Assembly: GCF_013315695.1 (NCBI RefSeq)
Contig: NZ_CP054353.1
Strand: one strand, 5' to 3'
Length of the DNA: 64,000 bases
Origin: Escherichia coli
GTDB lineage: Bacteria > Pseudomonadota > Gammaproteobacteria > Enterobacterales > Enterobacteriaceae
Position 1 is the stretch's first letter; each line of letters starts with the position of its first letter. Positions 45,582-50,100 of the stretch are shown here, piece by piece. The notes beneath the pieces are model-generated. The model saw nothing but the letters and a program-made list of their open reading frames with translations. It did no database searches and was not told the DNA's origin. The position numbers and the translations under genes were made by a program.

Positions 45582-47081
45582 ATGCTACATTTGTTTGCTG
45601 GCCTGGATTTGCATACCGGGCTGTTATTATTGCTTGCACTGGCTTTTGTGCTGTTCTACGAAGCCATCAATGGTTTCCATGACACAGCCAACGCCGTGGC
45701 AACCGTTATCTATACCCGCGCGATGCGTTCTCAGCTCGCCGTGGTTATGGCGGCGGTGTTCAACTTTTTGGGTGTTTTGCTGGGTGGTCTGAGTGTTGCC
45801 TATGCCATTGTGCATATGCTGCCGACGGATCTGCTGCTTAATATGGGATCGTCTCATGGCCTTGCCATGGTGTTCTCTATGTTGCTGGCGGCGATTATCT
45901 GGAACCTGGGTACCTGGTACTTTGGTTTACCTGCATCCAGCTCTCATACGCTGATTGGCGCGATCATCGGGATTGGTTTAACCAATGCGTTGATGACCGG
46001 GACGTCAGTGGTGGATGCACTCAATATCCCGAAAGTATTAAGTATTTTCGGTTCTCTGATCGTTTCCCCTATTGTCGGCCTGGTGTTTGCTGGCGGTCTG
46101 ATTTTCTTGCTGCGTCGCTACTGGAGCGGCACCAAGAAACGCGCCCGTATCCACCTGACCCCAGCGGAGCGTGAAAAGAAAGACGGCAAGAAAAAGCCGC
46201 CGTTCTGGACGCGTATTGCGCTGATCCTTTCCGCTATCGGCGTGGCGTTTTCGCACGGCGCGAACGATGGTCAGAAAGGTATTGGTCTGGTTATGTTGGT
46301 ATTGATTGGCGTCGCACCAGCAGGCTTCGTGGTGAACATGAATGCCACTGGCTACGAAATCACCCGTACCCGTGATGCCATCAACAACGTGGAAGCTTAC
46401 TTTGAGCAGCACCCTGCGCTGCTGAAACAGGCTACCGGTGCTGATCAGTTAGTACCGGCTCCGGAAGCTGGCGCAACGCAACCTGCGGAGTTCCATTGCC
46501 ATCCGTCGAATACCATTAACGCGCTCAACCGCCTGAAAGGCATGTTGACTACCGATGTGGAAAGCTACGATAAGCTGTCGCTTGATCAACGTAGCCAGAT
46601 GCGCCGCATTATGCTGTGCGTTTCTGACACTATCGACAAAGTGGTGAAGATGCCTGGCGTGAGTGCTGACGATCAGCGTCTGTTGAAGAAACTGAAGTCC
46701 GACATGCTTAGCACCATCGAGTATGCGCCGGTGTGGATCATCATGGCGGTCGCGCTGGCGTTAGGTATCGGTACGATGATTGGCTGGCGTCGTGTGGCAA
46801 CGACTATCGGTGAGAAAATCGGTAAGAAAGGCATGACCTACGCTCAGGGGATGTCTGCCCAGATGACGGCGGCAGTGTCTATCGGCCTGGCAAGTTATAC
46901 CGGGATGCCGGTTTCCACTACTCACGTACTCTCCTCTTCTGTCGCGGGGACGATGGTGGTAGATGGCGGCGGCTTACAGCGTAAAACCGTAACCAGTATT
47001 CTGATGGCCTGGGTATTTACCCTTCCGGCTGCGGTACTGCTTTCCGGCGGGCTGTACTGGCTCTCCTTGCAGTTCCTGTAA
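45582..47081 (+). CDS. pitA: Low-affinity inorganic phosphate / metal-phosphate transporter PitA
   Basis: 499 aa polytopic membrane protein; GANDGQKG motif. Confidence 0.95.
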
Positions 47082-47098
47082 TCGTACGCACCAAAACG

Positions 47099-47129
47099 AG
47101 CGGGTCAGTTTACTGGCCCGCTTTTTTTA
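47099..47129 (+). terminator. Rho-independent terminator of pitA
   Basis: agcggg...cccgct stem followed by TTTTTTT. Confidence 0.75.
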
Positions 47130-47151
47130 TGCGTCATTATTGCTGAAGTGC

Positions 47152-47487
47152 TTAATGCCAAATCATCAATGCAATCAGGCTGACCACCACCAGACCACAC
47201 AATGCGCTGGTCAGAATAAACTGCCGACGCACCCGCTCACAGCGGCGAATAAACTCATCATCGTGATGATCGCGATAACGTTGGGCATAGATATACCAAA
47301 CGAGACGCACCTGTTTGTTGGGTTGGCCATGTGAGGTAAAAAAGCCCCCTCCATCAACATATTGATAGAGCAATGGATCGCAGTTACGCAGTACCACTAA
47401 CAACGCGCGTAGTGATGAGAAATAGCGCGCCATGTTAACAATGCAAACGACACATAAAGCCCAAAATAATGCGACGGTGCTTATCAT
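47152..47487 (-). CDS. uspB: Universal stress protein B
   Basis: 111 aa, two TM segments, [23 protein letters not shown]... Confidence 0.93.
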
Positions 47488-47877
47488 ACCTCCTCCCCGG
47501 CGACCTGCCCGCGGAGTTCCACCCCGGGGCTACCGCTCCCGATACGCTGCCAATCAGTTAACACCAGGTCCTGGAGAAACCGCTTTTGTGGTGACCAACA
47601 TCCGAGCGGCTCTATAGATAGTGTAGGAGATCAGGTTGTTTTTTTTCCAGAAGGTTAACCACTATCAATATATTCATGTCGAAAATTTGTTTATCTAACG
47701 AGTAAGCAAGGCGGATTGACGGATCATCCGGGTCGCTATAAGGTAAGGATGGTCTTAACACTGAATCTTTACGGCTGGGTTAGCCCCGCGCACGTAGTTC
47801 GCAGGACGCGGGTGACGTAACGGCACAAGAAACGCTAGCTGGCCAGTCATCGACAACTTTATGGAAGGAGTAACACT

Positions 47878-48312
47878 ATGGCTTATAAACACATTCTCAT
47901 CGCGGTCGACCTCTCCCCGGAAAGCAAAGTTCTGGTAGAGAAAGCAGTCTCTATGGCTCGCCCCTACAATGCGAAAGTTTCTCTGATCCACGTAGATGTA
48001 AACTACTCTGACCTATACACCGGGCTTATCGATGTGAATCTGGGTGATATGCAGAAACGCATCTCTGAAGAGACACATCATGCGCTGACCGAGCTTTCAA
48101 CCAATGCAGGCTACCCAATCACTGAAACCCTGAGTGGCAGCGGCGACCTGGGCCAGGTACTGGTCGATGCAATCAAGAAATACGATATGGATCTGGTGGT
48201 TTGTGGTCACCACCAGGACTTCTGGAGCAAACTGATGTCTTCCGCACGTCAGCTGATCAACACCGTTCACGTTGATATGCTGATTGTTCCGCTGCGCGAC
48301 GAAGAAGAATAA
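47878..48312 (+). CDS. uspA: Universal stress protein A
   Basis: 144 aa, [39 protein letters not shown]... Confidence 0.96.
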
Positions 48313-48337
48313 TCTTCCCTCCACGACGTGTTCCTGA

Positions 48338-48368
48338 ACGCCCGCATATGCGGGCGTTTTGCTTTTTG
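48338..48368 (+). terminator. Rho-independent terminator of uspA
   Basis: cgcccgc atat gcgggcg hairpin followed by TTTTGCTTTTT. Confidence 0.8.
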
Positions 48369-48627
48369 GCGCGCCTTGTTACCTTGCAGCGTAAACACCT
48401 TATCTGGCCTACGGTCTGCGTACGCAATCAAAATCCCCTGCCAATACAACATTTAACACCATCATATTTTCCATCATTAGTGTGATCAGCTGGTTATTTT
48501 CTGTTGTAATAGTGTATTAATCTATTCACCGCATCAATATTAAGAATCTCTGACAGATGTAAACTTTTTCGCGCGTTATCCCTTACGCGTTCATACTTTT
48601 CAGGATGGTATTGGAAGGTTAATAAAT

Positions 48628-50100
48628 ATGAATACAACAACACCCATGGGGATGCTGCAGCAACCTCGCCCATTTTTCATGATCTTTTTTGTCGAGTTAT
48701 GGGAGCGATTCGGCTACTACGGCGTGCAGGGCGTACTGGCTGTTTTCTTCGTTAAGCAGCTTGGATTCTCGCAAGAACAGGCTTTTGTCACTTTTGGTGC
48801 TTTTGCTGCGCTGGTCTATGGCCTCATTTCCATTGGCGGCTATGTCGGCGACCACCTGCTGGGGACCAAACGCACCATTGTTCTCGGAGCACTTGTGCTG
48901 GCGATTGGCTACTTCATGACCGGCCTGTCGCTACTTAAGCCTGACCTGATTTTCATCGCCCTGGGGACTATCGCTGTCGGTAACGGCCTGTTTAAAGCTA
49001 ACCCAGCCAGCTTGCTTTCGAAGTGCTATCCGCCGAAAGATCCGCGGCTTGATGGCGCATTTACCCTGTTCTATATGTCGATCAACATCGGCTCGTTGAT
49101 AGCGTTATCGCTGGCCCCTGTGATCGCTGATAGATTCGGCTATTCAGTCACCTACAACCTGTGCGGTGCGGGATTAATTATCGCGCTATTGGTTTACATC
49201 GCCTGTCGCGGAATGGTGAAAGACATTGGTTCTGAACCCGACTTCCGGCCGATGAGCTTCAGCAAACTGTTGTACGTGTTACTTGGCAGCGTGGTGATGA
49301 TCTTCGTCTGTGCATGGCTGATGCACAACGTAGAAGTCGCCAATCTGGTGCTGATTGTTCTCTCCATCGTCGTCACCATCATTTTCTTTCGTCAGGCATT
49401 CAAGCTGGATAAAACCGGGCGCAATAAAATGTTTGTCGCCTTTGTCCTGATGCTCGAAGCGGTGGTGTTTTACATTCTCTACGCCCAGATGCCAACGTCG
49501 CTGAACTTCTTTGCCATCAACAACGTGCATCATGAAATTCTCGGCTTTTCCATCAACCCGGTCAGCTTCCAGGCGCTTAACCCGTTCTGGGTGGTACTCG
49601 CCAGCCCAATACTGGCAGGCATTTACACGCATCTGGGTAACAAAGGCAAAGATCTCTCGATGCCGATGAAGTTTACTCTCGGCATGTTTATGTGCTCACT
49701 GGGCTTTTTGACGGCTGCAGCGGCTGGAATGTGGTTTGCGGATGCCCAGGGGCTGACATCGCCATGGTTTATCGTGCTGGTGTACTTATTCCAGAGCTTA
49801 GGTGAACTGTTTATTAGCGCCCTTGGCCTGGCGATGATTGCTGCCCTGGTGCCGCAGCATTTGATGGGCTTTATTCTCGGGATGTGGTTCCTGACGCAGG
49901 CTGCCGCGTTCTTGCTGGGCGGCTATGTGGCAACATTTACCGCAGTACCAGACAACATTACCGATCCGCTTGAGACGTTGCCCGTCTATACCAACGTGTT
50001 TGGTAAGATTGGCCTGGTTACGCTGGGCGTTGCCGTAGTGATGCTATTGATGGTGCCGTGGCTGAAACGCATGATTGCGACGCCGGAAAGCCATAGCTAG
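48628..50100 (+). CDS. dtpB: Dipeptide/tripeptide:H+ symporter DtpB (POT family)
   Basis: 490 aa; ExxERFxYYG POT signature ([13 protein letters not shown]). Confidence 0.94.

Follow-up and report, generated by a model that had tools for sequence, protein, structure and literature searches.

We find that the GC-rich DNA upstream of uspB very probably comprises the core sigma-S promoter and the 5' untranslated leader of this gene, both encoded on the minus strand. Both are already known, the promoter being a catalogued sigma-S promoter, and the locus as a whole is ordinary and largely known. Our analysis of the 64-kb stretch of Escherichia coli DNA, referred to here as the window, thus re-identified a catalogued sigma-S promoter and its leader and removed a false lead, a supposed terminator on the plus strand. 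The small additions are conserved hairpins in the leader, which lie outside the RNA family databases, and a Term-seq 3' end 13 nt before the start codon that had gone unremarked.

Locus and base composition

The surroundings of the GC-rich stretch are the pitA / uspB / uspA / dtpB locus of E. coli, with the following coding regions:

Ending at 47081, plus strand: pitA (ORF list)
47152-47487, minus strand: uspB coding sequence, 111 aa, PF10625, the A of the ATG being 47487 (ORF list; RefSeq annotation of identical DNA; Pfam on homologues)
47878-48312, plus strand: uspA coding sequence (ORF list)

The 461-nt segment 47440-47900 is present as one copy per genome, at 99% identity or more, in 5422 of 5426 complete E. 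coli genomes, and the annotation over this segment in those genomes consists of uspB and uspA only. The annotation of K-12 MG1655 holds no additional feature between uspB and uspA.

The interval singled out in the initial annotation, 47497-47640, begins 10 nt before the start codon of uspB and extends away from that gene. It had been described as an unusually GC-rich stretch of about 130 bp. The richness stands, at 62.5% GC for 47497-47600 and 63.5% for the whole leader (47488-47613) against a window average of 50.9%; the length does not, the GC-rich part being approximately 105-125 nt. Over the full 144 nt of the interval the value is 58.3%, because its right end enters the AT-rich promoter. 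Across the whole 64-kb window, 5.4% of 104-nt windows have at least 62.5% GC. Among non-coding 104-nt windows (approximately 3300, mean GC 40%, with non-coding sequence approximated by masking ORFs of at least 110 aa) this level is reached by 0.33%, every one of them within the uspB-uspA intergenic region, and 47497-47600 is the GC-richest non-coding stretch of the 64 kb. The leader RNA, read from the minus strand, is G-rich, with 49 G and 31 C in its 126 nt.

GC-rich intergenic DNA in E. coli is usually due to REP/BIME repeats. As the cause of the GC richness upstream of uspB they were ruled out, since the sequence occupies exactly one place per genome in 5422 genomes and a single-copy locus is not a REP-type repeat.

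Three further observations concern the flanks of this locus. In the gap between pitA and uspB (window 47081-47152), the present strain is missing a 173-bp insertion found in K-12 MG1655, in which the terminator stem (CGAGCGGGTCAGCTGGCCCGCTT) occurs a second time, flanking a REP/BIME-like sequence (GCCGGATGCGGCGTGAACGCCTTATCCGGCCTAC...). The present strain has a single bidirectional terminator at 47098-47123, common to pitA and uspB. Between uspA and dtpB, K-12 RefSeq lists yriA (24 aa) and yriB (17 aa), two tiny overlapping genes on the minus strand, in a region that corresponds to approximately 48379-48463 of the window.

The sigma-S promoter of uspB

The promoter is made up of the following elements, listed outward from the transcription start:

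Approximately 47613 +/-1 (47612-47614), minus strand: uspB TSS (Peano et al. 2015 Table 1 and Table S3; sequence located in K-12 and in the window)
47620-47626, minus strand: -10 element of sigma-S type, cTACACT, with C at -13 (Peano et al. 2015 Table S3; conservation)
47639-47652, minus strand: -35 region with A8 tract, TTCTGGAAAAAAAA (Peano et al. 2015 Table S4; promoter alignment)
47653-47660, no strand assigned: palindrome GGTTAACC, about -40 to -47 of the uspB promoter (anchored promoter alignment)

An E-sigmaS ChIP-seq peak at 3637750-3637949 in old K-12 coordinates has been assigned to uspB, and an experimentally validated uspB TSS lies at 3637871 in the same coordinates (Peano et al. 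2015, PMC4447067). The same study gives the '-20 to +1' sequence of uspB as TGATCTCC-TACACT-ATCTAT (Table S3) and its '-35 region' as TCTGGAAAAA (Table S4). The title of Farewell et al. 1998 likewise describes uspB as sigma-S regulated. The ChIP-seq peak corresponds to roughly 47491-47691 of the window, and the two published strings are the reverse complement of 47614-47633 ('-20 to +1') and 47642-47651 ('-35'). The offset between old and new K-12 coordinates, which we take as given, places the uspB TSS at approximately 47613; since the conversion between genome versions rests on this assumed offset, the position carries an uncertainty of one nucleotide on either side. With the TSS at this position, 47488-47613 is the 5' UTR (approximately 125 nt) and 47614-47652 the core promoter. 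The more cautious reading offered in the initial annotation, that the stretch may be only the uspB leader, is thereby borne out by a published start site.

The sigma-S -10 consensus (KCTAYRCTT, with C at -13 and approximately 7 nt upstream of a mapped TSS) is matched by cCTACACTAT at 47617-47627 on the minus strand. Conservation of the promoter was assessed on an alignment of 58 distinct sequences, drawn from 80 Enterobacteriaceae loci and 8 more distant Enterobacterales and anchored on the -10 element. The segment ATCTCCTACACTAT is nearly invariant across more than 70 Enterobacteriaceae, and CTACACT or CTACAAT is retained in Serratia, Dickeya, Edwardsiella, Mixta, Lonsdalea and Rahnella.

The T8 run on the plus strand, reported in the initial annotation as the end of the GC-rich stretch, does exist. 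It occupies 47639-47646, beginning one base before the end of the marked interval (47640) and continuing past it, and is one of two runs of at least eight T within the 64-kb window. Read from the minus strand, it becomes an A8 tract, located in the -35/spacer region of uspB between about -26 and -33. The pattern TGG(Y)A5-8 occurs at a fixed distance from the -10 element in 53 of the 58 distinct Enterobacterales promoters and, among the distant genera, is kept by Dickeya, Mixta and Lonsdalea. Because the A-tract is conserved at fixed spacing, we regard the T-run as a selected promoter element of the opposite strand. RNA polymerase carrying sigma-S binds the cTACACT -10 element together with the TGGA8 -35/A-tract, and transcription from approximately 47613 yields a G-rich leader of about 125 nt ahead of the uspB ATG.

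Two side observations were made on the promoter alignment. The 8-bp palindrome GGTTAACC is centred at about -43 of uspB and about -95 of uspA, and reads GRTTAACS in most Enterobacteriaceae; it is a candidate protein site, perhaps one at which a single regulator serves both divergent promoters, uspB and uspA. Five loci from Kosakonia and relatives retain this sigma-S promoter and A-tract and have a leader of approximately 190 nt. It exceeds the leader of other Enterobacteriaceae by roughly 60 nt, and an unrelated GC-rich insert follows the TSS.

The plus strand at the T-run

Another proposal in the initial annotation was a small plus-strand transcript ending at the T-run. In its fuller form, a small transcript, or an RNA antisense to the 5' end of uspB, would traverse the GC-rich region and terminate intrinsically at T8, a reading to which we attach next to no probability. 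Apart from the T8 run itself, the one feature in its favour is that the plus-strand MFE structure pairs both ends of the region just upstream of the run; the stability of this fold is unexceptional (z = -0.78), as 45 of 200 shuffles are at least as stable. A terminator scan of 47000-48500 returned three sites, including the pitA and uspA terminators, none of them at 47639-47646, and no hairpin abuts the run. No promoter-like site was found on the plus strand by a consensus promoter scan of 47000-48500, which gave zero sites and also missed the known uspA and uspB promoters, so that a negative outcome says nothing about -10 elements that are imperfect or of sigma-S type. In the published Term-seq tables for LB OD 0.4, LB OD 2.0 and M63, a check that the initial annotation had itself suggested, no plus-strand 3' end is listed between 3639154 and 3640022 and hence none at the T-run (Adams et al. 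2021, PMC7815308). The T-run is moreover accounted for by the conserved A-tract of the uspB promoter. Judged by the refuting condition set in the initial annotation itself, a small plus-strand RNA at this position is not supported, and it is close to refuted; on our reading the plus strand holds no gene in this interval. Two plus-strand ORFs in the region, 47432-47617 (61 aa) and 47469-47561 (30 aa), were rejected as mechanical; both are antisense to uspB and have non-triplet indels between genera.

As a separate observation, a plus-strand Term-seq 3' end lies within the uspA 5' UTR (approximately 47751-47877), at 3640022, which is window position 47789, 89 nt before the uspA ATG. It has a read count of 9200 and a Rho score of 0.57 in LB 0.4, where it is scored 'No', and counts of 5336 in LB 2.0 and 2392 in M63 (Adams et al. 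2021, PMC7815308). This end is approximately 40 nt inside the long uspA leader, beside the inverted repeat CCCCGCGC...GCGGG, and may reflect a transcript that ended prematurely or a fragment of that leader.

Structure and conservation of the leader

On the minus strand, the leader RNA contains two local hairpins and a possible extension of one of them:

47577-47612, minus strand: SL1, 5'-terminal stem-loop, leader +2..+37 (MFE; z-scores; pair table)
47507-47530, minus strand: SL3, GC-rich hairpin GCCCCGGGG-UGGAA-CUCCGCGGGC, leader +84..+107 (MFE; RNAalifold; covariation)
47534-47536 with 47500-47502, minus strand: outer GCG:CGC helix, putative extension of SL3, +78-80 with +112-114 (invariant)

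From the TSS through the start codon, the minus-strand RNA folds at -48.8 kcal/mol compared with -49.5 +/- 4 for shuffled sequences (z = +0.17), and the +1..+114 leader fragment has a folding z of -0.37. Since the whole leader is no more stable than its dinucleotide shuffles, the term "structured" fits the two local hairpins only. A covariance-model scan, proposed as a check in the initial annotation, returned nothing within 47488-47877 (Rfam 15 cmscan of 46900-48700, both strands, E<=10). The suggestion of a short structured RNA holds in part, on the other strand: there are two conserved hairpins and a 3' end at 47500 on the minus strand, and an RNA ending there would, if it starts at the uspB TSS, be a leader fragment of approximately 114 nt and not an independent gene.

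SL1 and SL3 are conserved across Enterobacteriaceae with compensatory changes and are present in no RNA family database. For SL3, the consensus GYCCCGGRG-loop-CUCCGYGGGC is also the RNAalifold consensus of 71 leaders. Standard pairs account for 97.3% of cells in these leaders and for 41-50% after sliding of the 3' partners; in five of the eight pairs both sides have changed, and none of 500 shuffles matches the observed score, a covariation signal that is modest in that it comprises 15 double-change cells in closely related genera. The outer GCG:CGC helix is invariant and is thus no evidence for or against pairing.

SL1 is conserved in its position and shows covariation. Its start falls at +2 to +5, 1-4 nt from the TSS, in every one of 51 distinct leaders, with variable loop size and stem length. 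The first 40 nt or so have a median z of -2.3 over the same 51 leaders, 29 of which fall below -2. The sole variable column of the SL1 5' arm forms C-G, A-U, G-U, G-C, U-A or U-G pairs in 42 of the 51, a table that is biased toward pairing because it was taken from the per-sequence MFE folds. By analogy with the ompA leader, where such an effect has been demonstrated, SL1 may serve as a 5'-terminal stabiliser that limits 5'-end-dependent attack by RNase E/RppH, a role that would suit a stationary-phase mRNA. Two features expected of such stabilisers, a stem-loop within approximately 4 nt of the 5' end and conservation of its structure, are found in SL1.

The whole leader is 116-136 nt long in approximately 70 Enterobacteriaceae species, and the alignments show its middle to be poorly conserved from genus to genus. 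In the distant Enterobacterales Serratia, Dickeya, Edwardsiella, Mixta, Lonsdalea and Rahnella, the sigma-S -10 element, a leader of 135-200 nt and the G-rich SD are retained, and the leader sequence of the Enterobacteriaceae is not.

A leader peptide was also considered. A 15-codon ORF at +13..+60 (47554-47601, minus strand; AUG UUG GUC ..., encoding MLVTTKAVSPGPGVN and ending at UGA) lies partly inside SL1 and is found in Escherichia and in some Citrobacter or Salmonella-like leaders. Because Klebsiella, Raoultella and Kluyvera lack its AUG and indels disrupt the frame in other leaders, it was rejected as a conserved leader peptide. The idea of CsrA binding, based on a GGA in UCGGAUGU near the 5' end and on the SD, found no support in a literature search.

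Separately, the 3' half of the leader (47488-47540, minus strand) contains at least four G-runs (GGG, GGGG, GGG, GGGG), and most other genera have GGGG...GGGCGGG...GGGG. An RNA G-quadruplex that competes with SL3 and the SD is conceivable from these runs.

The Shine-Dalgarno region

Two segments of the leader bear on translation initiation:

47489-47498, minus strand: very strong G-rich SD, GGGGAGGAGG (sequence; invariant alignment columns)
47562-47576, minus strand: CU-rich stretch CUCC...CCUGGUG, ACUCUUUCAC in most other genera (per-species MFE folds)

The high GC content of the leader is explained by the GC-rich SL3 and this adjoining SD. Within the SD region, the segment CGCCGGGGAGG is almost invariant in Enterobacteriaceae.

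One alternative to a plain promoter and leader is that the leader acts as a cis switch, in which the CU-rich stretch at 47562-47576 pairs with the SD until temperature, ethanol, a protein or an sRNA opens it, the 3' end at -13 then being premature termination or cleavage of the untranslated RNA. We consider such a switch distinctly unlikely. The SD does pair with the upstream CU-rich stretch in the MFE structures predicted for E. coli and most other genera, despite the sequence difference between Escherichia and the others, and outside Escherichia the motif CACUCUUUCAC is conserved. In a control with the upstream 75-90 nt shuffled, the SD was more paired than in at least 38 of 40 shuffles for 14 of the 71 leaders. 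The overall effect in the 71 leaders is nevertheless weak (median 0.76 versus 0.69), the pairing probability of the E. coli SD is 0.63 both in the native leader and in its shuffles, and so G-rich an SD finds partners in nearly any sequence of such composition. The SD side is invariant, which makes a covariation test impossible. As for the termination that this reading allows at -13, the G-rich leader RNA is a poor Rho loading site, and there is no listed Rho termination region with a start coordinate beginning 36394 to 36399, in data from exponential phase, when uspB is barely expressed. Because SD pairing is nearly unchanged by shuffling, we make no claim of SD sequestration.

The minus-strand 3' end at 47500

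A published 3' end falls inside this leader:

47500 (NC_000913.3 3639733), minus strand: Term-seq 3' end of class 'orphan', at -13 from the uspB ATG, leader C114 (Adams et al. 2021 supplementary files 1 and 3)

The mean read count of this end is 109,975 in LB OD 2.0 and 42,672 in M63, and it is absent from the LB OD 0.4 sheet; the uspB terminator end at 3639154 has counts of 130,524 and 25,150 in LB OD 2.0 and M63, respectively (Adams et al. 2021, PMC7815308). The 47500 end was taken as published, from these curated tables. Its detection in LB OD 2.0 and M63 and not in LB OD 0.4 fits sigma-S-dependent expression. The main text of Adams et al. 2021 (PMC7815308) does not mention uspB, and the leader fragment is neither discussed nor northern-validated there. 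The end lies 7 nt 3' of SL3, at the final nucleotide of the putative extended SL3 helix, and no U-tract is found at this position. Given the missing U-tract and the G-rich leader, neither intrinsic nor Rho-dependent termination is an obvious cause.

Most likely, the 47500 end marks a stable leader fragment that arises as a decay intermediate. SL3 would act as a barrier, so that an mRNA cut or degraded from its 3' side would leave a fragment of approximately 114 nt ending at 47500, produced either by cleavage near the ribosome-binding site or by 3'-to-5' trimming. This fragment would survive because SL1 shields its 5' end and SL3 its 3' end. What speaks against a minor decay intermediate is the abundance, since the count at 47500 is on par with that of the uspB terminator end and above the expectation for such an intermediate.

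A hairpin-assisted transcriptional pause before the SD, which would aid transcription-translation coupling and produce no stable RNA, is a very improbable source of this end. The elemental pause consensus is reportedly G-11 G-10 ... Y-1 G+1, and an end at +115, one nucleotide past the mapped one, would fit it, with SL3 ending 7-8 nt upstream. The mapped end is at +114, however, where +1 would be C and not G. Term-seq was moreover performed on total RNA, in which nascent transcripts are a tiny fraction, and yet the count equals that of the terminator end.

Beyond a stable decay intermediate, it is possible that the fragment of approximately 114 nt has an independent function. One specific form of this idea is that the uspB leader gives rise to an independent sigma-S-dependent RNA (+1 to 47500) with a function in trans, as a base-pairing sRNA or a sponge, like ChiZ and IspZ. 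We regard this as unlikely, even with a number of observations in its favour. As expected of a 5' UTR-derived sRNA, there is a discrete 3' end inside the 5' UTR in published data; this end is reproducible and has a high count in two conditions, comparable to that of the mRNA's own terminator, and the fragment would keep both conserved hairpins. Functional 5' UTR fragments have also been demonstrated (Adams et al. 2021, PMC7815308). On the other hand, the 3' end has neither a U-tail nor a terminator, and the central leader is poorly conserved between genera. Among the matches listed by a RIL-seq-based sRNA predictor (2 of 8 uspB occurrences), uspB appears as 'CDS' nodes with an sRNA probability of approximately 0.0005-0.0007. 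A literature search on uspB leader RNA (UTR, CsrA, Hfq, RIL-seq) gave nothing specific. The preferred reading of the 47500 end remains a stable fragment left by decay.

In its broadest form, the proposal is that the stationary-phase uspB leader yields an abundant sigma-S-dependent RNA of approximately 114 nt, bounded by the two hairpins that are conserved across Enterobacteriaceae. This RNA would function in trans, as an sRNA or a sponge, or else reflect a regulated decision, taken just upstream of the SD, between full-length uspB mRNA and a truncated leader. We consider this doubtful. If the truncation were regulated, the decision would limit UspB synthesis; overproduction of UspB is said to be toxic. 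A regulated truncation or a functional leader RNA would, if real, mean that this stationary-phase membrane stress protein, itself poorly understood, is also subject to post-transcriptional control, and would enlarge the small class of 5'-UTR-derived RNAs by one.

Comparison with known systems

The GC-rich stretch resembles REP/BIME repeats in being GC-rich, palindrome-containing intergenic DNA and differs from them in that the uspB locus is single-copy; a genuine BIME does occur in K-12 400 bp away, between pitA and uspB, and is missing from the present strain. With intrinsic terminators the sole likeness is the T8 run on the plus strand. The uspB T8 run differs from them in having no adjacent GC-rich hairpin (none ends 0-2 nt before it) and no mapped 3' end.

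The uspB end shares with ChiZ and IspZ a defined, abundant 3' end within a 5' UTR and a TSS that is presumably that of the mRNA, and all three come from one data set (PMC7815308). The mode of 3' end formation differs, however: IspZ ends at an intrinsic terminator and ChiZ by Rho termination, whereas the uspB end has no U-tract and its leader is not C-rich and rut-like.

SL1 can be compared with the 5'-terminal stabilising stem-loops of long-lived mRNAs, of which hp1 of the ompA 5' UTR is reportedly one. As in that class, the stem-loop sits close to the start of a long leader, in SL1 at a distance of 1-4 nt, and keeps its position as its sequence covaries; SL1 has no sequence similarity to ompA, and for uspB a stabilising role is suggested by this analogy.

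The closest match is with the sigma-S promoters, such as those of dps, osmY and ychH, among which uspB is itself catalogued (Peano et al. 2015, PMC4447067). They share with uspB the cTACACT element, the C at -13, a degenerate -35 in an A/T-rich setting and E-sigmaS occupancy in ChIP. Nothing essential is different in uspB, although its A7-8 tract (-26..-33) is unusually well conserved and the GGTTAACC palindrome lies at about -43.
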